Shown: positions 25,018 through 60,253 of the stretch, in pieces | How positions within the stretch are numbered: the stretch's first letter is position 1 | How the letters are laid out: every line of letters begins with the position of its first letter | DNA from: a virus | Virus record (IMG/VR): IMGVR_UViG_3300024261_001362 | Location: 32,706-96,705 of that record | DNA length: 64,000 bases | Reading direction: 5' to 3' (one strand) | Translations under genes and position numbers: made by a program | The notes under the pieces: generated by a model | Database searches by the model: none | The model's input: only the letters and a program-made list of their open reading frames with translations | What the model was told of the DNA's origin: nothing

Positions 25018-26589
25018 TTAAATTTCGTGAATTTTGTCAATAATAAAAGAATTATCTTTATTATCTACTTTCCCATGAAACAGAAGGTTATTTCCCTCAT
25101 AAAGTATAAACTGATACTTGTCTCTTGCTTCTGGAAATACAATGACATTATCTATTGAGCAAGATTCATCTTCTATACTTAAGAAAGACATTGTTTTACC
25201 TTCTGATTTACCCTTTTTGATTGTATGGTTATTAAGTCTATTAATATTTGCCGCGATAGAAATATCTTTACCAGTTTTCCCGTTAAGAATATCTTTGCAG
25301 CTTGTATTACCCAAGGATGTATCAGACGACTCTACTTTAGATAGTGATATCGGACATCCCAAGAATTTTATTTCTTGTTCTATAATCCAACTTGGATCAT
25401 CCGCTAAATCATATGGAGGATTTATAAGAAGTTCAATTTCACCCTCAACGATCTGGCTTCTGTTCATATTATGACATCCGCCACCATTCTTTTTTGTAGG
25501 ATGTAACTCCTTAAAACATTGACTTACAGTCTTCCAGTGTTTTTTCTCATAATTTGTAGTTACCCACTTCATCTCTGACTTAGTTAATTCTTTATAGATC
25601 AGATACTCATACAATGCCTTGTTTCTTGATACTCCAGTGGATTTTATAGAGAAAAACCCAATAGAACATAAAGATTTAAATGCAGTAGAATTTATTTTAT
25701 TAGATATATAAACAAGAACATCCATCCAAGTGAATTCTTTTACAGATTTTCCACTTTCTTCTTCAGCTTCTTTTATAGCCTCAATAACTTTATCGCCTGT
25801 AACACCCGTTAAAGATTTGATATCTTTGATTCCAAAGTAAATATATTTTCCATCTATATTGAACTTCTTATCAAATTTTGATAGATTAGGTAACTTGACT
25901 TCAATATCAAACAACTTAGCTTCTGAAATAAGCTCATATACTTCTTCATGAGGATCTTGTTTTTCTGAAGCATAAAACAGATATGATAGGAAGAATTCTT
26001 TAGTATAATTTGCTTTATACCAAGCACTTTCATAAGCATTAATGGCATATGATACAGCGTGGGATTTATTAAATGAATATCGTGCGGACTTTTCAATCCA
26101 TCCAAAAATCTCCTTGGCAGATTCTTCACTAACCATACCCACTTCTCTACATCCGTCAATAAACTTGACGCGAATCTTCGCCATCAAGTCTGCCTTCTTC
26201 TTACCAATAGCCTTACGGAGGTCGTCAGCTTGCTGTAAATCAAATCCAGCGAGTTTCTGTGCTATCCTCATAGCTTGCTCTTGATAGACCAGAACACCAT
26301 AAGTAGGACCAAGGATACTTTCTAATGCATTATCAATATATGAAACTTCATCCTTGCCATTTTTACGATCAACATAGTGTTGAGTCATAGATTTACCCTC
26401 AGACATAGCCTTTAGGGTGCCAGGACGAATAATACTAATGAGTGCTGATAATTCCTCAATATTACTTGGCTCTAATCGTTTAGACCATGATCGTCCAAGC
26501 TGGCTTTCTAACTGAAAAATCCCCTTGGTGTATCCATCCTTAAATAGATTCCAAGTTTTTTCATCTTTGTAATCGACTTTAATTGACAT
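25018..26589 (-). CDS. dnaE: DNA polymerase III alpha, C-terminal half (fingers, HhH, OB)
   Basis: GIFQLES, IRPG, TYGVLVYQEQ, ADDLRKAIGKK, YSFNKSHAVSYA, MSFLSIEDE; GGAGA RBS precedes ATG 26589. Confidence 0.93.
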   Translation of the reverse strand: MSIKVDYKDEKTWNLFKDGYTKGIFQLESQLGRSWSKRLEPSNIEELSALISIIRPGTLKAMSEGKSMTQHYVDRKNGKDEVSYIDNALESILGPTYGVLVYQEQAMRIAQKLAGFDLQQADDLRKAIGKKKADLMAKIRVKFIDGCREVGMVSEESAKEIFGWIEKSARYSFNKSHAVSYAINAYESAWYKANYTKEFFLSYLFYASEKQDPHEEVYELISEAKLFDIEVKLPNLSKFDKKFNIDGKYIYFGIKDIKSLTGVTGDKVIEAIKEAEEESGKSVKEFTWMDVLVYISNKINSTAFKSLCSIGFFSIKSTGVSRNKALYEYLIYKELTKSEMKWVTTNYEKKHWKTVSQCFKELHPTKKNGGGCHNMNRSQIVEGEIELLINPPYDLADDPSWIIEQEIKFLGCPISLSKVESSDTSLGNTSCKDILNGKTGKDISIAANINRLNNHTIKKGKSEGKTMSFLSIEDESCSIDNVIVFPEARDKYQFILYEGNNLLFHGKVDNKDNSFIIDKIHEI

Positions 26590-27259
26590 ACAGGTCTCCA
26601 TCGGCAAATGCTTGTTCAATCTTTAAATTACGATAGACAGCACGGTGAGTTTTCATAAATTTAATCATAATATTAGCAGTATCCTTTACGTCCTGCAAGG
26701 CATCATGAGCATTATCTGAAGAAAGTCCCATTCTTTCTCTCATTGAATCCATACTAATCGACTTAATATTAGGATCACCCTCTGTCCACATCCACACATT
26801 ATCCATTACATCAATCTTATATACCATACTAAACAACTTCTGTTGTTCTCTTTTGTCATCCCACGGGCCAAATTCTTTACATAATCTATTGATGATATGC
26901 ATATCATATCCAATAATATTGAATCCCGCTGGAATAGGTGCAAAGAATGGTGTTCCCTTCCAGTTATACTTATCAACAAAGGCACAAAACTTTTTCCATA
27001 CAGTCTTTAGTTGAGGTGCTTTAGCAATACCTTCCCTAGTCTTACCAGTAACCTTTAGGGCACCTTCCTCAATAGGACCAAGACCAGCGGCAATAGCTTT
27101 GTCATCATCTACAACTGCACGTATCTCACTATTAAATTTTCCTTTCAATTTAAAGTTACGACCATCAAGTGCAATGGCAGCGAGTTGTGTTGGCTGACAA
27201 GTATGTGGATTACGTCCACCCGTCTCAAAATCGAAAACCACGATATCTCTTGAAGCCAT
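26579..27259 (-). CDS. DEDDh 3'-5' exonuclease (DnaQ/epsilon-like)
   Basis: FDFETGG, GFNIIGYD, HDALQD. Confidence 0.9.
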   Translation of the reverse strand: MASRDIVVFDFETGGRNPHTCQPTQLAAIALDGRNFKLKGKFNSEIRAVVDDDKAIAAGLGPIEEGALKVTGKTREGIAKAPQLKTVWKKFCAFVDKYNWKGTPFFAPIPAGFNIIGYDMHIINRLCKEFGPWDDKREQQKLFSMVYKIDVMDNVWMWTEGDPNIKSISMDSMRERMGLSSDNAHDALQDVKDTANIMIKFMKTHRAVYRNLKIEQAFADGDLYVN

Positions 27260-27261
27260 AG

Positions 27262-27867
27262 TTATTTCCTTTCCAAATGAGAATAAGTCTTCATTATTTT
27301 CTGTCCTTTGTTCTGATAGGTAACTGCTTCACAGAAATCAAGAAATTCCTGATGTGTCATATTTCCTTTCATCACATTAATACGTTTATGTACCCACTGT
27401 ACATTTCCTTCAATGTAGCCCAGAGAGCTATCAATTCTATCTATAGACGCGGTATAATCACCATTGATATGTTCTATATTATCACGAGATAAGAATATTT
27501 CAATACCACTATAAGCACATTTTCTTTCTTGTTGGATAAAAATATCCCAAAGGTACTCATAACTGACAGAAAATTCTAATCCTCTTTTTTTCGCACCCGC
27601 CTTTACTCTTGCTAGAAAGGCACCCTGCATTTCCTTGTATCCAGTGAATCTGGGGTTATCAGGACCGCTTAAATAGCAGGCTTTTCTCCTGAATTCTATC
27701 CCATTATTCTTGAGGATTTTCTGGATCTTCTTGGGGTAACTTCCCACTTCCGTGGCAATAGTTCTTACTTTCATACCATTTTCATACATTTCTATGATCT
27801 GATCCTCGTCCAAGTTATGATTAAACTTTTTACTTGGCAGGAATCTGCCGCTTTCACTACGTTTCAT
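27262..27867 (-). mobile_element. free-standing HNH homing endonuclease with N-terminal HTH
   Basis: CAYSG...ASIDRIDSSLGYIEGNVQWVHKRINVMK; AGGAGA RBS before ATG 27867. Confidence 0.85.
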
Positions 27868-27903
27868 TTTTGTCTCCTTGAGTATAAGTACCAGTTGTAA
27901 GAT

Positions 27904-27912
27904 ATTATACAC
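27904..27912 (-). promoter_or_regulatory. GTGTATAAT putative phage promoter (HNH gene)
   Basis: Same 9-mer at 49033-49041 and 52520-52528. Confidence 0.55.
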
Positions 27913-27934
27913 AATTTGACTTTAAAACTCGCTG

Positions 27935-29578
27935 TTATGCACTGGCTCCAATTAATTCTTTGATTTTCATAAGTTTGTCCAAGAGATTAATCCCAAGAAC
28001 GTCAAATTTAACATGTCCTAGTGCTTCAAGATCAGCCATTTCAAGACCAGCAATCTTTTCATCACTGCTTTTTTGATTAACCATAGGACACACGAGGTTT
28101 AATTCTTCTTTTGATATTACAACCCCAGCAGCATGTTTGCCCTGAGTCTTAAACGTACCTTCCATATCGATAGCTTGTTGAAAGTACTCAGCATAATCAC
28201 CCTGTAATTTACCAGCATCATTAATAAAACAATAATCTCTAAGTTCATTAGAGTTATTAATCAGCGACCATTTAATAATAGACCTATCCTCATCATCCAT
28301 AGCAGCCAGTTGGTCTGAGATATCCGCTTCATTTGGAATACTTTTAGTCATTTCATTCATTAAACCAAAACCGCAAACACCACTAACTCTTAATACTTCT
28401 TTTAGTGCAGAGCGACCTTGTAATCTACCAAATGTCAACATCTGACTTACATTACCGTGACCATATGTCTCCTTTAGGTAATCGATAATATCATCCCTTT
28501 TGTTTCCGGGAACATCCATATCAATATCTGGTAAAGAAATGTGATCACCAGTATTTCTACCACTGTTGTAGAATCTCTCAAACAGTAAATCAAATTCAAT
28601 TGGATCAATCTTTGTTATACCAATCATGTACGAGATAAGACATCCAGCAGCAGAACCTCGACCCGGACCTGAGATCCAACCATTACTCTCTACAAAATGT
28701 ACAATATCCCTAACAATTAAGAAATAACCAAATAGTTTTGCCTCTTCAATAACACTAAATTCATGTAGGAATCGTTGATGATACTTATCCTTACTTGCTT
28801 GATCTTGTACTTTGTTTTGTTTAGCAAGTAGTGTTCGCCAACCATCACGACAAAGCTGCTTCAGGTACTCTTCTTCAGACTCACCACTTGGAGTTGGAAA
28901 TGTCGGTAGCATTGGCTTATTAAGAATATCATACTCTTCACATTTATTAGAGATGTCATGTACAACATTTGCATTTTCAGCATCATTCATCAGAATTTCA
29001 GAAAGTTCCTTAGTATCCCTCAAATAGAAATCATCACATTCAAAAAATTCTTGATTGTCAAAAAGTTCATCAGATCTTAACATCTCCCTTATTTTGGGCA
29101 TAGTAGTCTTCATGCCTGAACATAAGATAATTCTATGTAGTTCAGCGTGTTCTTTATTGGTGTAATATGTTGGCCGTAAACATTCTGACACCATATAAAA
29201 ATCATCACCCTGAATAGGTGAATTTGCTAAATTACTCGAAGTACAAACAAGGTTACCAGCTCTACATGCATCTTGAAGAATTCTTCCATCTGGATTACCA
29301 TCCTCAGTGATCGAAGAAACAATCTTAATGAGATCAAACCAGCCATCTTTATTTTTAGCAAACAATTCATAATTATCAAATGCACATCCAATGATAGGTT
29401 TTACATCATACTTGTGACAAGCCTGAAAGAAGGTGACTGCACCAGAGATGGATTTGTAATCACAAATACCACAGGCTTTATATCCATTCTCAGAACACTT
29501 CTTAACTAATTCATCTGGTTTGGAGAATCCTTTTAATAGTGAGTAATGAGTAAAATTTCTAAGTGGGAACCAATTCAT
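27935..29578 (-). CDS. dnaE: DNA polymerase III alpha, N-terminal half (PHP, palm, thumb)
   Basis: THYSLLKG, GPGRGSAAGCL, LLFERF, SLPDIDMD, GKHAAGVVI and KFDVLG, then a stop. Confidence 0.93.
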   Translation of the reverse strand: MNWFPLRNFTHYSLLKGFSKPDELVKKCSENGYKACGICDYKSISGAVTFFQACHKYDVKPIIGCAFDNYELFAKNKDGWFDLIKIVSSITEDGNPDGRILQDACRAGNLVCTSSNLANSPIQGDDFYMVSECLRPTYYTNKEHAELHRIILCSGMKTTMPKIREMLRSDELFDNQEFFECDDFYLRDTKELSEILMNDAENANVVHDISNKCEEYDILNKPMLPTFPTPSGESEEEYLKQLCRDGWRTLLAKQNKVQDQASKDKYHQRFLHEFSVIEEAKLFGYFLIVRDIVHFVESNGWISGPGRGSAAGCLISYMIGITKIDPIEFDLLFERFYNSGRNTGDHISLPDIDMDVPGNKRDDIIDYLKETYGHGNVSQMLTFGRLQGRSALKEVLRVSGVCGFGLMNEMTKSIPNEADISDQLAAMDDEDRSIIKWSLINNSNELRDYCFINDAGKLQGDYAEYFQQAIDMEGTFKTQGKHAAGVVISKEELNLVCPMVNQKSSDEKIAGLEMADLEALGHVKFDVLGINLLDKLMKIKELIGASA

Positions 29579-32620: not shown

Positions 32621-34062
32621 TATTCATCTTCCTCGATTGGAATTTCAGCACCTTCGATAGCACCGTCAGCACCTCCACCTGCTCTGAGTTCATCTCTGGT
32701 ACGCAGTTCTAATAATTGAGCATGGTCTCCAACCATACGCATATTAATATAATTACCATCGTCCATTCCCGGACCATGTCTTGATACGATTGGTACGAGC
32801 TTTCTATTACCAGCATTGGGACCATCTTCAGCTAACTCTTCTGCTGACTTAGTTTTAAAAATAGAAAAAGATGTACATAACCAAATCAATCTATCAGACC
32901 CACTAACAGCATCTGTAGACTCTTTAGTTATACCATCTCTATTCAACTGTACAAATGACAAACAAGGAAACTCATACTTAACAGCTAAGTTGTGCAATGC
33001 TGTAATCTGAAATCCCAGTGCTTGGTATTCTTGTATATTATTAGTGATAGATCCAGATGTCATCAACTTCAAATAGTCATAGACAACAACACATTGGTTG
33101 GTTTTTCCATTCTCATCTTGACCAACTTCCTGCATAATCCATCGTTTAATTGTATTCAATATCTGTTCAAATGGAGCACCAGCAACAGTGACGTAGGTGT
33201 AGGGAATATCTTTAATATGATCAATTGCCTGCTTTACCTTGATGGTTTTTTCATCATCATCAGTAAATCGTCCGGTAGCTACTTCGTTAATCGGAACACC
33301 ACTAAGATTAGAAATAATACGATTAAGGTGGTCTTCCTTTGACATTTCAGTATCCAGCATTAATACTGGAATACCTTTAGCAGCTACGTTGATGGCGACA
33401 TTGTCACCAAAAACGCTCTTTCCTACTTTAGGTCTTGCAGATACTAAATCGACACAGCCCGGTCTCAAGCCGCCTCCAATAGCTGCATCATATCTAGCAA
33501 ATCCTGTTGGAATACCAATTTGATCACATTTGTTCTCAATGAGAAACTCAAGATATTCGTCTACACCATCGCCAATCCTTTCGGGTTTGTTACCAGTATC
33601 ATCTTCTCTTAAAAAATCTGTGATTGGGTTTTCTAAGATGTTGATGATTTCATCAATTGATTCATCACCGTTTATATCATCAATGTCTCTACCAATTTTA
33701 TTGGTTAGCTTCTTAATTTTCCTTGCGAACTCAAATTTCTTTATTTGTGCTGCAAAGTAAAGTACATTGTCTTTTTTTACAGGATATTCCATTAAGGAAT
33801 TTATATACTCTAATTCTTGATTAGAATTAATTATGTCTTGTAAATCTAATTTCTTAGCTACTGATAGCAAAGATGGTAGATCTATTTCTGCTCCATCTTT
33901 AATAATCTTTTCTATACATTTAAAGATAACCTGATTATTTTTATGAGAAAAACTATCACTATCAATAACATCGCATACTTCAACATATGATTCTAAACCA
34001 TATGAAAAAATACCTGCTAGGACCGCTCTTTCAGCACCTAGATCCATCAGATTGTTAGACAT
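32620..34062 (-). CDS. dnaB: replicative DNA helicase
   Basis: AERAVL, ARPKVGKS Walker A, TEMS, YDYLKL, QLNR. Confidence 0.93.
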   Translation of the reverse strand: MSNNLMDLGAERAVLAGIFSYGLESYVEVCDVIDSDSFSHKNNQVIFKCIEKIIKDGAEIDLPSLLSVAKKLDLQDIINSNQELEYINSLMEYPVKKDNVLYFAAQIKKFEFARKIKKLTNKIGRDIDDINGDESIDEIINILENPITDFLREDDTGNKPERIGDGVDEYLEFLIENKCDQIGIPTGFARYDAAIGGGLRPGCVDLVSARPKVGKSVFGDNVAINVAAKGIPVLMLDTEMSKEDHLNRIISNLSGVPINEVATGRFTDDDEKTIKVKQAIDHIKDIPYTYVTVAGAPFEQILNTIKRWIMQEVGQDENGKTNQCVVVYDYLKLMTSGSITNNIQEYQALGFQITALHNLAVKYEFPCLSFVQLNRDGITKESTDAVSGSDRLIWLCTSFSIFKTKSAEELAEDGPNAGNRKLVPIVSRHGPGMDDGNYINMRMVGDHAQLLELRTRDELRAGGGADGAIEGAEIPIEEDE

Positions 34063-44462: not shown

Positions 44463-44489
44463 TCTATATCATCCCCAAAATCAAAAGAC

Positions 44490-44520
44490 AAAAATAGCCA
44501 CCTATAAAAAGCGTGGCTAT
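44490..44520 (-). terminator. intrinsic terminator
   Basis: ATAGCCAC-loop-GTGGCTAT followed by a T run. Confidence 0.7.
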
Positions 44521-44528
44521 AAATTCAA

Positions 44529-44798
44529 CTATCTAACAATTTTTACTTGTACATTCTTACCAACATTCACATAAATAACATCTTTACCATCTTCTTTGGT
44601 AAATTCCAACATATCAATTACTTCTCTCGCTTTATCAATATGCTCTTGCTCAAGGTTAACCTTCTTTAGTGCTTTTTTAATTAGTGCATCAGTAATATCA
44701 ATATCAAATAGTCCACTGTATTTATCACTTTCGTTACCACTAATCACCACCTCTTCTTCCATAACTCCACTTACGGCAACCATTTTAAAATCACTCAT
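44529..44798 (-). CDS. hypothetical protein
   Basis: Coupled ORF, last gene before the terminator. Confidence 0.55.
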   Translation of the reverse strand: MSDFKMVAVSGVMEEEVVISGNESDKYSGLFDIDITDALIKKALKKVNLEQEHIDKAREVIDMLEFTKEDGKDVIYVNVGKNVQVKIVR

Positions 44799-45295
44799 TG
44801 ATTAAAACTCCAAGATATAGCGTTTAAAACATCTACTAAACTATCTCTTTTCTCTTGTGTAAGATCTTCATTTTCCTTACCAAGAGTCGCAATAATAATT
44901 TCGTCTACTGATTCACCAAGATTAGCATACTTATCTTTCAAGTCAAGCCCAGTAAAGTTTAATTGTCCTGCAATTGAATTAAAATTTTTAAATTGCTCAG
45001 TTGTTTTGATTAGTCCCGGTTCCGTCTTGACAACATCTGCTAATGTTAAAAAATAATCCCTGAGTTGGTTCTTATCTGATTTGTTAATATCAAGTGATAC
45101 TAATCTCTCTACCAGTGTTTTATTTGTCAAGGATGGTTCGACAATTTCTGGTGTAGTATCAACTGGTGTAATTTCTTTACCTTGTAACACTTTAGCGATA
45201 GGTTTACCAGCAATAGAAATAAAAACCAAAACAATAACAAAAATAATTTGATATGTTTTATTATTTAGAATTTCTAACACTTTACTGTTCGACAT
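44795..45295 (-). CDS. N-terminally membrane-anchored protein
   Basis: YQIIFVIVLVFISIAG TM segment; GGAGG RBS. Confidence 0.65.
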   Translation of the reverse strand: MSNSKVLEILNNKTYQIIFVIVLVFISIAGKPIAKVLQGKEITPVDTTPEIVEPSLTNKTLVERLVSLDINKSDKNQLRDYFLTLADVVKTEPGLIKTTEQFKNFNSIAGQLNFTGLDLKDKYANLGESVDEIIIATLGKENEDLTQEKRDSLVDVLNAISWSFNQ

Positions 45296-45629
45296 GGTCA
45301 CCTCCATTGAGATTAATCAATAATGGAAAAATTGTATCAACTTTATCTACAGCCTCATCAAGTCCAGCTTTAACGCATTCTCTTTTAAATGATGACCAAG
45401 CACAAACAATTCTAACAATATCCTCATTCGGTTCTGCATGGGGAACCATAATTTGAATCGAATTATTACCTTTTGGTCTCAAAACAGGAACTGTAATCAA
45501 TTTGTCTATATCAACTGTATCTTTTTTTGTTTTCTTTTTTTCTTCATTAATAAACATAGTAATCAAAACAATAGCAGCTACACCAAGTAAAACCAATTGC
45601 CAAGCATCTAAACCTAATTGATCTATCAT
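45282..45629 (-). CDS. N-terminally membrane-anchored protein
   Basis: WQLVLLGVAAIVLITMFI followed by a basic stretch. Confidence 0.65.
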   Translation of the reverse strand: MIDQLGLDAWQLVLLGVAAIVLITMFINEEKKKTKKDTVDIDKLITVPVLRPKGNNSIQIMVPHAEPNEDIVRIVCAWSSFKRECVKAGLDEAVDKVDTIFPLLINLNGGDHVEQ

Positions 45630-46054
45630 TGCTTATCTCCTATAAATAATCCATGATTTTTGTAAATACCAAGTATATTTTCTATATCTTCTGCATTCAT
45701 TTTATGGGATTGGTCTGTTATTGATTCATATAGATCTTTTTTTATTTTATTTTTCGAGGGCATAGAACCGTGGGCCTGATAACGTGCGAAATTTTTTCTA
45801 ATTTCTCTTTTAATGAAGAACCTCTGAAAGAGGCCCGGTTTTTGTATAGAGTATAAAGCTCTGTCTGCATTATTACTATAGCATACATATATTAGTCTTA
45901 TAACGCTAATTATGCAGTTACAAATTGTAACAATAGTTATAATATCGAAAAAATAACTATCTTTAGTATGCATCTTATCGACCACTTCGTCAGCAATTTT
46001 TCTTACATCAGGATGTAAATTATCTAAATTATCCCGTGTTACATACCTACTCAT
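45626..46054 (-). CDS. hypothetical protein with one hydrophobic segment
   Basis: FFDIITIVTICNCIISVIRLIYVC. Confidence 0.6.
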   Translation of the reverse strand: MSRYVTRDNLDNLHPDVRKIADEVVDKMHTKDSYFFDIITIVTICNCIISVIRLIYVCYSNNADRALYSIQKPGLFQRFFIKREIRKNFARYQAHGSMPSKNKIKKDLYESITDQSHKMNAEDIENILGIYKNHGLFIGDKQ

Positions 46055-46745
46055 TTGTTTTGTCCTTTATAGTTCTCATTAAATTACTTTTACTCATCGA
46101 TCCTGTATAGTGAACCAATTTGTTAGTGCTATCTTTTTTAATAAGAATCGTTTGTGGCAATGTTCTGACTTTGTATTTGTTAAATAATTTTCTATGCTCC
46201 GGGGTGTTCCAATCAAGCATAGTAAGTTTGATCTTACGTTCTTTAAGTAATTGATATACATCCTTATGTTTTTTCTCATTCCAAATATCTTTCTTCATTC
46301 TTTGACAGGGACCGCACCAAGTGGCTCCAAAATAATACAAATTATACTCAGGTTCTTCCTTCTTTTCAACTGTATTAGCTATCAGTTGAATCTTTCCATC
46401 AACCTTGGTGGTTGGGATAGTACAAGCTTCCCCACTACGACATTGACAATTATCCCCACAATTACCAGTACAAGTATCTTTCGTACATCCAGTTTCTTCA
46501 TTCTTTGCATGATATGGACATTTACTTTCATGTCCATCACCCTGCACAATGATACCAGTACCTTTACAAATACACTTGTCTACATCTGGATGTGGACCTT
46601 CTGGTTGAGGTGTAGGCTTTGGTGTATTATCTACACCATTAGATATTAAAACCTTTGCAATATCTACAGATATTTTAGGTCTGTAATTATCTTCTGCACC
46701 TAATAGCATAACAATCATTGTCGTAGCGATTAACCCAAACTTCAT
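46047..46745 (-). CDS. exported thioredoxin-domain protein with Cys-rich region
   Basis: Signal-like N-terminus; CICKGTG...CPYH; CTKDTCTGNCGDNCQC; FGATWCGPC...LP thioredoxin fold. Confidence 0.8.
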   Translation of the reverse strand: MKFGLIATTMIVMLLGAEDNYRPKISVDIAKVLISNGVDNTPKPTPQPEGPHPDVDKCICKGTGIIVQGDGHESKCPYHAKNEETGCTKDTCTGNCGDNCQCRSGEACTIPTTKVDGKIQLIANTVEKKEEPEYNLYYFGATWCGPCQRMKKDIWNEKKHKDVYQLLKERKIKLTMLDWNTPEHRKLFNKYKVRTLPQTILIKKDSTNKLVHYTGSMSKSNLMRTIKDKTNE

Positions 46746-46754
46746 TTCTTTCTC

Positions 46755-47684
46755 CTATAGAAAATCTACCGTACCATAATTTGGTAATTGCCTAGCTGGG
46801 AAACCATCAACATCACTAAAAACCCAAGAACCACGACTAGCCAACATAGCTCGTGCATCGCTTTCACGAATCCAAAAACTACCATCTGGTTGTTCGTGTT
46901 TCTTAGGACCAGAGTTCCATCGTCCCCAGCTATTTTGCACTAGAAACAATGTTTCTCTATGTACTTTTTGAGTGTCGTCGCAAGCAATCCAAGCCATAGC
47001 ATGACTCCATCCTTTACCACGTTTAGCAATTCCGTTCACATCTCTTCTTGAGCTAAAACCATAACCACTACAAACAGATATACCATAACCATTAGCTAAA
47101 GCATCTCGTGCTTCTTCTATTGTGGTAATCATAGATATAGTTTTGACTCTATGCTTATTTGCTTCATCGACATATATCTCCATTGGAATTAAATGATTTG
47201 CACCAATTTTAGAATTATATACAGATAAATCTATTGATCCATAATCTTTTCTCAAGAGAATACCACCTTTTTGATTAGCGTACCTCGCAGCAACTGAACA
47301 GGACATTCCCTGTCTCTTGTGTCCGCGAGATTGATATATGCCTTCTGTAGCACTTCTTGTTAAGAAACTTTCTGGTTCTTTTTTTACGTCAATCTCAACA
47401 GCTCGTGTGAGATCAATTGCATTTCTTGTAGAATGAGAAACACAATCACCAGTAGTCTGACGCTCCGATGGGCCAAAACCTTTATCAAATTTCAACAAAG
47501 ATTTATAAGGTAGTGAGAGCTTCCCTTCTCCACTACCATATAAACTATATGCTGCTGCACCAAATAAAGGGTTTTTTAATTCACCTAAAAGATCAGCAAT
47601 ATCTTCATCGTTACATATTGTTCCAACGAATCCGTCCTGATAGGTTTTTAGGATTTTGCGTGGAGTAGTAAAATCCTCAGTCAT
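46755..47684 (-). CDS. papain-family (C1) cysteine peptidase
   Basis: QTTGDCVS (oxyanion Q, catalytic C), HAM (H), VQNSWG (N), GSFWI. Confidence 0.85.
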   Translation of the reverse strand: MTEDFTTPRKILKTYQDGFVGTICNDEDIADLLGELKNPLFGAAAYSLYGSGEGKLSLPYKSLLKFDKGFGPSERQTTGDCVSHSTRNAIDLTRAVEIDVKKEPESFLTRSATEGIYQSRGHKRQGMSCSVAARYANQKGGILLRKDYGSIDLSVYNSKIGANHLIPMEIYVDEANKHRVKTISMITTIEEARDALANGYGISVCSGYGFSSRRDVNGIAKRGKGWSHAMAWIACDDTQKVHRETLFLVQNSWGRWNSGPKKHEQPDGSFWIRESDARAMLASRGSWVFSDVDGFPARQLPNYGTVDFL

Positions 47685-47685
47685 A

Positions 47686-47892
47686 CTACTTCGTATTATC
47701 TCTAATCCAAGTGATTATTGACTGGAGGCCGACAGTTACCACGGGAACTACCAGTGGACCCAAAGCACCAAGATCGATATTAATCAAACTCTCGGACACA
47801 AAGGCTAATCCAGCAGCGGCACCCACAAGTAAACCCGTCTTCAATACTGATACAATTTCAGCACCATTTAACTTAAAACTTTCAGAACCCAT
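47686..47892 (-). CDS. holin-like two-TM protein
   Basis: 68 aa, two hydrophobic helices, charged C-terminus, 1 nt upstream of the peptidase. Confidence 0.55.
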   Translation of the reverse strand: MGSESFKLNGAEIVSVLKTGLLVGAAAGLAFVSESLINIDLGALGPLVVPVVTVGLQSIITWIRDNTK

Positions 47893-47905
47893 AATTAAAA
47901 CCTTT

Positions 47906-48205
47906 CTAATCTAATAAAAGAACAACCTTGTCACTCAGTGACTTTAAATCTTCTCTAGCTTGTTCATGACCTTCCATAAGTCCTTCTAATCTTCCTACTT
48001 TCTCACTCATTGAGACCGTCCACATGTCACGTTCAACATGTCTATCTTCACACTCTTTTAATTTTTTGCAAACTCTTGTTTCAGTATTAACCATTTGTCG
48101 ATGCATAGATCTCCATAACACAGTTACGGCAGCGGCCAATCCACCAACAATTGGAGTACATAGCTTTAAAATAAATTCAATATTTAATTGTAAATCTGAA
48201 GACAT
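47906..48205 (-). CDS. single-TM coiled-coil protein (holin/antiholin-like)
   Basis: IVGGLAAAVTVLW TM then coiled coil; GGAG RBS before ATG 48205. Confidence 0.5.
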   Translation of the reverse strand: MSSDLQLNIEFILKLCTPIVGGLAAAVTVLWRSMHRQMVNTETRVCKKLKECEDRHVERDMWTVSMSEKVGRLEGLMEGHEQAREDLKSLSDKVVLLLD

Positions 48206-48241
48206 ATAAACTCCAGTAAATAAATATAAGTCTACTACAAT

Positions 48242-48271
48242 AAAAAGCCCCACCCCGGTAGGGGTGAGGCT
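48242..48271 (-). terminator. intrinsic terminator
   Basis: AGCCTCACCCC-TACC-GGGGTGGGGCT-TTTT. Confidence 0.85.
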
Positions 48272-48297: not shown

Positions 48298-48948
48298 TTA
48301 CGATTCAAATGCATCTTTAGCTTTATATTCATCAGTTGTAGGTGCTGCCAGACCACCAAAGTGGTATGTAAGTTCACCCGGAACAGATCTGGTTGGAGTA
48401 GCGGCATTATCAGTAGCGACCCCGCTTGCTGCTAACCCGTCGTGGTAGGTTTGAGCAGTACCAGCACCAGCACCCTTAGTGTAGTTAGGTGTAATATCAG
48501 TGCTTGGTGTAGCATAAATATCAAATGTGCCATTACCAGTACCAAGACGACGGGTAGTAAGCAATTCATGAACACCATCACGAACAACACCCTTCCAGTT
48601 GGCTGCTGTCGTGTCGAGTGCGGTAGTAGCAACATTAGACAATGTGCTTGTAACTCCCCCACCTCTCATCACCCATTGTGATGCAGTAGCATTGTATGCT
48701 AATGTACCACCAGATAAAGCTTTAGCAACACCAACTCTATCAGTTGTTGCGGCACCCGTACCATCATTAGCTACTACTTTAGCACCCACATCTCTTAAAT
48801 CATCAACAGTACCAACAATTGTTACTGCATTACTAATTGGACCTGTAGTCGTGTCAGCATTACCAGCCTGAAAGATAGAACCACCATCTTTAACTTCACC
48901 AGTACCAACTGCGACATCACCAGCACCCGAAGGTCTTACTGTGGCCAT
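48298..48948 (-). CDS. Gly/Ala/Thr-rich protein, probably a virion structural protein
   Basis: Composition, AAGGAGA RBS, own candidate promoter and terminator. Confidence 0.5.
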   Translation of the reverse strand: MATVRPSGAGDVAVGTGEVKDGGSIFQAGNADTTTGPISNAVTIVGTVDDLRDVGAKVVANDGTGAATTDRVGVAKALSGGTLAYNATASQWVMRGGGVTSTLSNVATTALDTTAANWKGVVRDGVHELLTTRRLGTGNGTFDIYATPSTDITPNYTKGAGAGTAQTYHDGLAASGVATDNAATPTRSVPGELTYHFGGLAAPTTDEYKAKDAFES

Positions 48949-57820: not shown

Positions 57821-57829
57821 AAAAATAAG

Positions 57830-58094
57830 TGGAGGCGGCGATAATCGAAATCGCGTCCTGTATAATCTAAATAATAACTTCATCCACATGTTTGCTCTCT
57901 AAGAGAGATCCCTTGCCTATATTACTTATGCCTGTCTTTGGTTACCAGAGCGACAGACAACTCCTGCCGTTATACGGCGAGTGCAAAACTATTAGTTTTA
58001 GCAGTTAAGTTTTGACCGAATTTTTAACGGGCCTTTCGGTCAACCCGTACATGCAGTTATTATCTCTAATTACCAGTCAATGCCTTTCGCCCCC
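57830..58094 (-). ncRNA. ssrA: tmRNA, compact (265 nt), tag (A)AKTNSFALAV
   Basis: Acceptor GGGGGCG/CGCCTCC-A with G3-U; T-arm GCGAT-TTCGATT-ATCGC; pk1 ACGGG/CCCGT with TTGACCGAA/TTCGGTCAA; tag GCT AAA ACT AAT AGT TTT GCA CTC GCC GTA TAA. Confidence 0.92.
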
Positions 58095-60138: not shown

Positions 60139-60181
60139 AAGCAAAGACTCTTCCTATAAATCCATTATAAACCTAAAATAG

Positions 60182-60253
60182 TGGGAATGCCCAGATTCGA
60201 ACTGGAATCAAATGTTTAGAAGACATTTATGTTATCCCTTACACTACACTCCC
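60182..60253 (-). tRNA. tRNA-Arg(UCU), CCA not encoded
   Basis: Acceptor GGGAGTG/CATTCCC, anticodon arm AATGT-CTTCTAA-ACATT, T-arm TCCAG-TTCGAAT-CTGGG. Confidence 0.9.

Follow-up and report, generated by a model that had tools for sequence, protein, structure and literature searches.

Phages of Gram-negative bacteria carry holin-endolysin-spanin cassettes, of which lambda S-R-Rz/Rz1 is the type, and signal-arrest-release (SAR) endolysins, which work with pinholins, include P1 Lyz, an enzyme activated by thiol-disulfide exchange. Among the clan CA peptidase families, CHAP, NlpC/P60 and Amidase_5 are recorded in phage lysins and C1 is not among them (PMC10318531), while xylellain-type C1A peptidases were reported to have been acquired by Myoviridae and Siphoviridae, no function being given to the phage copies (PMC10380794). 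Our literature search found no description of a papain-family enzyme together with a thioredoxin in a lysis cassette. Here we analyse a 64-kilobase (kb) stretch of IMG/VR virus record IMGVR_UViG_3300024261_001362 (64,000 nucleotides, positions 32,706 to 96,705 of the record; hereafter the window), in which eight consecutive genes, g1 to g8, had been proposed in an initial annotation to form a non-canonical lysis or envelope-breaching system. Seven of these genes, g2 to g8, travel as one module in roughly 85 related viral contigs, and the core of this module is, judged from the encoded sequences, a papain-family peptidase with an outward-facing anchored partner, a cysteine-knuckle protein and an exported thioredoxin. 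It is very probable that g2-g8 belong together functionally, as a module whose site of action is the envelope, and the most economical reading, to which we give a probability of roughly 0.5, is that they are the lysis system of this phage lineage.

The peptidase and its conserved module

The eight minus-strand open reading frames (ORFs) occupy positions 44529-48205 of the window and are listed here in gene order together with the flanking terminators.

48246-48271, minus strand: upstream intrinsic terminator, 11-bp stem with 8 G-C pairs and T-run (-23.6 kcal/mol, z -4.6); ends the preceding gene, g0
47906-48205, minus strand: g1, 99 amino acids (aa); N-terminal transmembrane (TM) segment (residues ~10-31), charged helical tail
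47686-47892, minus strand: g2, 68 aa; two hydrophobic segments ('type A'), holin candidate
46755-47684, minus strand: g3, 309-aa C1A cysteine peptidase; no hydrophobic segment, no signal peptide
46047-46745, minus strand: g4, 232 aa; signal-like N-terminus, cysteine knuckle, thioredoxin domain; 11 Cys
45626-46054, minus strand: g5, 142 aa; one internal TM segment (residues ~38-56)
45282-45629, minus strand: g6, 115 aa; N-terminal TM segment followed by a basic cluster
44795-45307, minus strand: g7, 170 aa; type II membrane protein: N-in anchor, then a predicted periplasmic helical bundle (residues ~57-170)
44529-44798, minus strand: g8, 89 aa; acidic, soluble; last gene of the unit
44482-44520, minus strand: downstream intrinsic terminator, hairpin 44494-44520 plus T-run (-13.2 kcal/mol, z -4.5); lies before nrdA

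The description of this region as eight tightly coupled genes between two intrinsic terminators was confirmed, all the ORFs being present and both hairpins carrying T-runs. The junctions are, in gene order, gaps of 13, 1 and 9 nucleotides (nt) followed by overlaps of 8, 4, 26 and 4 nt. The stability of the downstream hairpin was reached by none of 200 shuffles, and its larger loop is the sole reason why it was overlooked by the terminator scan. Hydropathy analysis likewise agreed with the hydrophobic segments ascribed to the eight proteins, which are found in g1, g2, g5, g6 and g7, with g8 soluble.

Alignment, profile and structural model are in agreement that g3 is a C1 peptidase with intact Q/C/H/N residues and no signal peptide, as had been claimed. 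Its catalytic codons are located at 47457-47459 (Q76), 47442-47444 (C81), 47001-47003 (H228) and 46932-46934 (N251), and in a family alignment of 50 sequences Q76, C81, H228 and W253 are invariant while N251 is found in 47. Searches of g3 against Pfam (E <= 0.1) and PHROG returned no match and the curated threshold of PF00112 was not reached; the family profile retrieved caricain from the PDB with E 2.4e-5, and in one nearby Atlas cluster PF00112 is assigned to 14% of the members. The AlphaFold (AF2) model of g3, with a predicted local distance difference test score (pLDDT) of 94, aligned to xylellain (PDB 3OIS) with Z 21.7 and a root-mean-square deviation of 2.8 A over 232 residues at 18% identity (Foldseek E 1.5e-9), to papain, actinidin and cathepsins with Z 17-20, and to procathepsins with Z 18-20, and Foldseek found 246 PDB chains at E <= 0.001. 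By this model g3 is a distant xylellain-type peptidase of the papain family (C1A) with the catalytic set and the two-domain fold present, for which proteolysis is predicted. On the model, alignments with mature enzymes start at about residue 50, and those with zymogens at about residue 6 and run through the C-terminal part of the pro-peptide, which puts the first ~50 residues of g3 in the position of a pro-segment. Judging from these alignment ranges, not from inspected contacts, g3 may be latent as a zymogen. The fold matches in BFVD also comprise phage C1-like proteins for which peptidoglycan-binding or muramidase parts are annotated; these are a lead only.

The g3 family comprises 1,330 representative clusters (50% identity; E <= 0.001), 1,665 near-length matches and 334 IMG/VR stretches, and the Atlas clusters nearest to g3 are 85-93% viral. 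Between loci, peptidase identity amounts to 70-77%, compared with 74-82% for nrdA and 26-53% for the other module proteins. Moreover, in 34 of 150 representatives (P0121-P0270; e.g. P0122, P0123, P0128 and P0140) the peptidase is interrupted by insertions of 120-420 residues placed exactly at C81, H228 or N251, some homologues holding two of them, and the insertion in P0122 has a LAGLIDADG domain. By their sequences, the insertions at these three catalytic sites look like inteins, and inteins at catalytic residues argue that the motifs concerned are strongly conserved and functionally essential. Pfam searches with nine N-terminally extended peptidase homologues found nothing.

Profile searches covering 87 loci recovered the order peptidase, cysteine-knuckle protein, (g5), g6, g7 and (g8) without change in three gene orders. 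In arrangement 1, to which the window belongs, the module is placed between g1 and nrdA; in arrangement 2 it is found upstream of a sigma-factor block and behind a glycosyltransferase gene, and in arrangement 3 after nrdA/nrdB. Families of the accessory positions were detected in 46 loci for g5 (gene orders 1 and 3), in 76 loci of all gene orders for g6 and in 45 loci for g8, where it stands at the module end. Co-conservation had been expected of the whole gene set and holds for g2-g8, but not for g1. The latter is part of the transcription unit yet lies outside the conserved peptidase module and goes with g0 instead: genes in the g1 position follow g0 in all gene orders, and the g1 family itself was detected by profile in a single related locus.

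The small two-TM proteins of the module are of two types. Type A, represented by g2, was detected in 40 loci, in each of them immediately before the peptidase gene; in the window, g2 ends with ...WIRDNTK and its stop codon lies 1 nt before the peptidase start. Type B, recognisable by a conserved 'SRRFW' N-terminus, occurs in 44 loci downstream of the knuckle protein. Every locus with enough flanking sequence has one small two-TM protein, and types A and B are never found together. Non-orthologous replacement of a small membrane protein in an otherwise constant module is a pattern known for holins. When type B proteins were compared with PHROG, the holin families phrog_9987 and phrog_297 were matched by 13 and 12 of 17 proteins, respectively, phrog_4712 was matched as well, and almost nothing else was found (best E 5e-4). 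As for g2, it has the layout of a holin, being small, with TM segments and a charged C-terminus, and adjoining the candidate lysis enzyme. The assignment of the two-TM protein as a holin therefore gains from its constant presence and from the weak matches of type B, but g2 itself matches no Pfam or PHROG family, holin families included.

The gene following the peptidase encodes, in all gene orders, an N-terminal anchor or signal together with the motif C-x-C-x-G-x-G...GDGH...C-P-x-(H/C). In the window this is g4, which combines a signal-like N-terminus (residues 1-17, MKFGLIATTMIVMLLGA), a cysteine knuckle (CICKGTGIIVQGDGHESKCPYH; residues 58-79, nt 46509-46574) that is followed by a further Cys-rich stretch, and a thioredoxin domain (residues ~131-227, nt 46065-46355) with a WCGPC active site. 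The latter matches the Pfam family Thioredoxin PF00085 with E 3.5e-10 and 40.3 bits (cut-off 23.5), as well as phrog_22. In 26 loci of arrangement 1 the knuckle protein runs on into the thioredoxin domain, whose CxxC motif varies between CGPC, CAPC, CPPC, CNPC, CHPC and CQPC. The knuckle protein of arrangements 2 and 3 typically closes with a short basic tail, and there, as seen in two genomes, the thioredoxin is encoded on its own and bears either a signal peptide (with WCSPC) or a lipobox (with WCGPC). The thioredoxin with a signal and a Cys-rich linker is hence present as annotated, but the alignments point to the 'linker', not the thioredoxin domain, as the conserved part of g4. In the g4 family, the N-terminal flank of the hydrophobic segment is the more positive one in 41 of 49 members, the reverse being true of 5, and a lipobox is found in 5-6 of 54 g4 relatives and not in the window g4. 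The N-terminus and the flank charges are suggestive of export of the g4 thioredoxin to the periplasm.

Two other roles were considered for the thioredoxin. A disulfide-cage or switch role gained no support, C81 being the sole conserved cysteine of the peptidase. A role as reductant of ribonucleotide reductase (NrdC-like), considered in view of the adjacent nrdA, was rejected owing to the export signal, which the thioredoxin carries in every case, and the distance from nrdA in the other gene orders.

For the anchored proteins, topology was read from flank charges. These lean towards N-out/C-in in the g6 family (25 versus 8), and the N-flank is the more positive one in 51 of 51 members of the g7 family. 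The AF2 model of g7 (pLDDT 89) is a compact helical bundle, with which fold searches retrieved generic helical bundles only (Foldseek E at least 0.5; VIA best Z 7.1, in the noise range for helical proteins). Resemblance to spanins, as suggested for the anchored proteins, was not borne out by this fold, which gives no informative match; regarding spanin features, g7 has a predicted type II topology in all 51 members, and among the g4 relatives lipoboxes occur in the few mentioned above.

The peptidase has been fused to these partners in distant relatives. Homologues of 527-913 aa (P0160, P0170, P0171, P0173, P0183, P0189, P0207 and an ORF of L087) open with a membrane anchor and a ~110-residue g7-like domain, next to which the peptidase follows, and the relationship of g7 to the eight fused proteins is detected by hmmsearch with E 1.3e-6 to 2.1e-15 and by hhalign with a probability of 98.9% (E 2.9e-17). 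P0160, P0170, P0171, P0173, P0207 and the L087 ORF unite anchor, g7 domain, peptidase and a CxxCxGxG knuckle in one protein, and a single gene encodes both g7 and the knuckle protein in arrangement 3. A CxxC thioredoxin-like end was seen in P0183, P0207 and P0229 (hhalign 83% over 80 columns and 95% over 28 columns); the lineage thioredoxin hidden Markov model gave no match to the C-termini of these fusions at E <= 1, the link being found by hhalign alone, and we regard the thioredoxin-like identity of these ends with moderate confidence. Since they are fused in relatives, g7, g3, the knuckle and the thioredoxin appear to share one function, and the fusions uphold the proposal that the peptidase is linked to exported partners and a thioredoxin. 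The N-flank is more positive in seven of seven fused proteins, by which topology their peptidase is predicted to stand outside the cytoplasm. On the basis of the flank-charge counts, the soluble parts of g7, g4 and the fused proteins would all lie outside the cytoplasm, and it follows that the signal-less peptidase of this lineage has to get through the inner membrane before it can join its partners. A predicted complex of the peptidase with the g7 periplasmic domain gave scores of 0.67, 0.05 and 0.18.

The genomic context of the fused proteins was read for L087, a viral contig of 48.5 kb and higher GC content. Its 913-aa anchor-g7-peptidase-knuckle gene (L087:7415-11732) has an intein at the catalytic Cys. 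The gene upstream of it encodes a protein of 178 aa in which a lipobox is accompanied by a second TM segment, and the one downstream encodes a lipoprotein of 328 aa that is rich in Pro and Cys and has a basic tail. An ATPase gene nearby also has an intein-sized insertion.

Lysis as the proposed function, and competing explanations

No muralytic family was recognised in Pfam/PHROG scans of the eight proteins, in keeping with the earlier remark that the unit encodes no muramidase or amidase. We also translated four complete genomes and one or two partial ones in six frames and searched them with the Pfam models of 14 peptidoglycan-hydrolase families and two wall-binding domains. The genomes searched gave no match to Phage_lysozyme, Amidase_2, SLT, Peptidase_M15_4, Peptidase_M23, Glyco_hydro_108, Glyco_hydro_19, Amidase_3, Hydrolase_2, Peptidase_M15_3, NLPC_P60, Glyco_hydro_25, CHAP or Lysozyme_like, nor to PG_binding_1 and LysM. 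The negatives for Glyco_hydro_108 and Glyco_hydro_19 carry little weight, as the control genomes had no match to them either, while Thioredoxin, the positive control of the search, was detected in six of six genomes, with exactly one match in each. The expectation that no conventional endolysin would be encoded elsewhere thus agrees with the four complete relatives, in a lineage whose divergence makes this a weak argument.

The lysis reading is built on the holin-like gene, the signal-less enzyme with external partners, the conserved module, which is universal, and the lack of a competing enzyme. The holin action of g2, the latency of g3, what the thioredoxin does, what the peptidase cuts, expression late in infection and lysis itself are all inferred, and could be connected as follows. 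The signal-less g3 would build up in the cytoplasm, kept latent by its first ~50 residues, until g2 permeabilises the inner membrane and the peptidase gains the periplasm. There it would meet g7, with its anchored helical domain, and the exported g4 with its thioredoxin domain, and the thioredoxin would either keep the essential thiol of C81 reduced in an oxidising compartment or reduce disulfides of the substrate. Finally, g3 would cut peptide bonds of the wall, in peptidoglycan peptides or in wall or tether proteins, and the cell would open. Put in its most specific form, this amounts to redox-assisted proteolytic lysis, in which a released or anchored papain-family peptidase and its dedicated thioredoxin dismantle a protein-containing and possibly disulfide-cross-linked wall layer in place of a muralytic endolysin; we advance this form tentatively and with more doubt than confidence. 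With respect to the initial annotation as a whole, the observations were confirmed and the interpretation is partly supported.

Several results weigh against lysis as the function of the module. Cleavage of peptidoglycan is not known for papain-family enzymes. The peptidase, with 70-77% identity where nrdA has 74-82%, would be unusually conservative for an endolysin, and no second conserved Cys able to cage C81 was found in it, the next Cys columns being conserved at 52% and 38%. In regard to the holin, types A and B show no detectable relationship (hhalign 1.6%), the PHROG holin matches of type B are individually weak, and g2 and 13 relatives have no holin match in PHROG or Pfam. The module sits among sigma-factor and nucleotide-metabolism genes, away from structural and packaging genes, and tblastn against 50,697 phage records yielded no cultured relative. 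Besides, the missing hydrolase families offer weak support because prohead proteases of this lineage go unrecognised too: S77 and S78 (models PF04586 and PF03420) had no match in five relatives (G001-G005), four of which are at least 94% complete. It is plausible that the lineage encodes divergent enzymes that were not recognised.

An endolysin hidden in this manner would suit another explanation, according to which the module is an accessory lysis factor that resembles LysB, spanins or disruptin and attacks a layer other than peptidoglycan (wall or tether proteins, a surface layer (S-layer) or an outer-membrane linkage), the sacculus being cut by an unrecognised muralytic enzyme encoded elsewhere. 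C1A enzymes cut proteins, the S-layer-processing Cwp84 is among the fold matches of g3 (Z 18.1), and the partners face the periplasm by prediction, all of which fits such a factor. The absence of 14 hydrolase families and two wall-binding domains from four complete genomes argues the other way, as does the position of the peptidase beside a two-TM protein, which is usually that of an endolysin. We regard an accessory role as unlikely.

The location of the module among genes of early or middle type (sigma factor, ribonucleotide reductase) brings up a non-lytic envelope role, in superinfection exclusion, receptor destruction or the maturation of exported phage proteins, with the two-TM proteins as ordinary membrane components. 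The fused relatives, being anchored and exported from the start, would suit a function during infection, and the g2 of the window has no holin homology. On the other hand, the peptidase is conserved above the level of a usual exclusion gene (70-77% identity, 1,330 clusters, catalytic-site inteins), its signal-less form needs a route out of the cytoplasm, and the alternative two-TM protein, type B, matches only holin families; a non-lytic role is improbable in our view. A role as a protease of capsid or virion maturation, or as an entry enzyme carried by the virion, would account for the high conservation, which fits a morphogenetic enzyme, and for the lack of a recognised S77/S78 protease in five relatives and of any tail lysozyme family, but is very improbable given that fusion to an N-in anchor, an outward domain, a knuckle and a thioredoxin-like end is incompatible with a cytoplasmic procapsid, that the neighbours are membrane and exported proteins and not head genes, and that the fold is papain-like and not that of HK97/herpesvirus or ClpP proteases.

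For much of the uncultured aquatic virosphere no lysis genes are known. The peptidase family is large, is covered by no Pfam/PHROG model and was not matched in any of the 50,697 phage records searched. If the lysis reading is true, a papain-family protease with a dedicated periplasmic thiol-redox partner would join the known endolysin classes as a new class of phage lysis enzyme, in use throughout a very large group of uncultured phages from aquatic habitats. Hundreds of phage genomes could then have their lysis modules annotated, and a hint would be obtained on the envelope of unknown hosts. The gene fusions and the three catalytic-site intein positions provide concrete handles for experiments.

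Genome surroundings

The window is the right part of a viral record of 96.7 kb whose completeness is estimated at 58%, and its source is a large uncultured aquatic phage; complete relatives measure 131-173 kb, with terminal repeats in two of them. It has a GC content of ~34% and nearly all its genes are on the minus strand, among them replication genes for a DnaE-type polymerase in two genes, a DnaB helicase, a primase and a UvsX-like recombinase, in addition to a class I ribonucleotide reductase, a protein with sigma-70 region 4, one tRNA and one tmRNA. The split polymerase lies at 25018-29578 of the window, minus strand, as ORFs of 547 and 533 aa that both match phrog_405, with two ~220-aa ORFs between them. 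The tmRNA (57827-58094, minus strand) is of the standard one-piece form (Rfam RF00023, 96.6 bits) with the tag peptide AKTNSFALAV, and the tRNA is tRNA-Arg(TCT) at 60181-60253. Upstream of the window, the record contains a single ORF of 5,183 aa (G000:C1:3259-18810, plus strand), which is neighboured by ORFs of 931, 573, 1,614 and 1,281 aa on the strand opposite to the window genes; these large ORFs presumably encode structural proteins.

Next to the unit, g0 (216 aa; 48298-48948, minus strand) encodes a Gly/Ala/Thr-rich, Cys-free protein and ends at the strongest terminator of the region. It is kept in 61 loci and is always followed by a gene for a fast-evolving protein with an N-terminal TM segment, here g1; the protein in this position in L017 has a PAS-like domain (Pfam E 8e-5). 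The g1 start is likely the ATG at 48205, preceded by GGAG, since an alternative GTG at 48253 falls within the terminator, and g1 gave sub-threshold Pfam matches only. No known family was found for g5 (Pfam and PHROG) or g8, and no promoter motif was enriched in 16 intergenic gaps.

Neither the region, the peptidase nor a type B protein matched any of the 50,697 deposited phage records in blastn and tblastn searches. Seven peptidase-bearing matches were obtained in species genomes (L088-L094), in the form of near-identical phage contigs, one of 152 kb, inside metagenome-assembled genomes that include freshwater samples. The labels of these genomes (SAR202, Flavobacteriales, Promethearchaeota, Alphaproteobacteria and 'bacterium') conflict and the contigs look like mis-binned phage DNA, so that they give no host.

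Comparison with known systems

Regarding the enzyme itself, the nearest described relatives are xylellain of Xylella fastidiosa and other short bacterial C1A peptidases, which share with g3 the Q/C/H/N set and a short N-terminal pro-peptide-like segment in place of a long I29 prodomain. Unlike xylellain, the phage g3 has no signal peptide, fails PF00112, is part of a module of membrane proteins and a thioredoxin, and carries inteins in many of its relatives. Cwp84 of Clostridioides difficile (PDB 4CI7) is comparable as a C1A-type protease whose target is a protein layer of the cell surface, but it serves a housekeeping role in its bacterium, has a lectin-like domain and stands in an unrelated context. 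The CHAP and NlpC/P60 lysins also have a papain-like Cys-His core and cut peptidoglycan peptides or amide bonds; they belong to different families, whose models have no match in these genomes, whereas the fold of g3 is that of C1A proper with L and R domains.

As to the cassette, its layout resembles that of lambda in that a small two-TM protein is coupled to a signal-less hydrolase, which is followed by anchored or exported proteins, sometimes lipoproteins, in compact and overlapping genes. In contrast to lambda, the hydrolase is a papain-family peptidase and not a glycosidase, an amidase or a known cell-wall endopeptidase, g2 has no holin homology, and g7 is a helical bundle instead of a coiled-coil i-spanin. 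Integral to the unit, moreover, are a Cys-knuckle protein and an exported thioredoxin, and the unit does not stand beside packaging or structural genes. With SAR endolysins the fused relatives have in common that the enzyme is held on an N-terminal, periplasm-facing anchor and that thiol chemistry is tied to it, while the g3 of the window, in contrast to P1 Lyz, has neither an anchor nor a conserved caging Cys.

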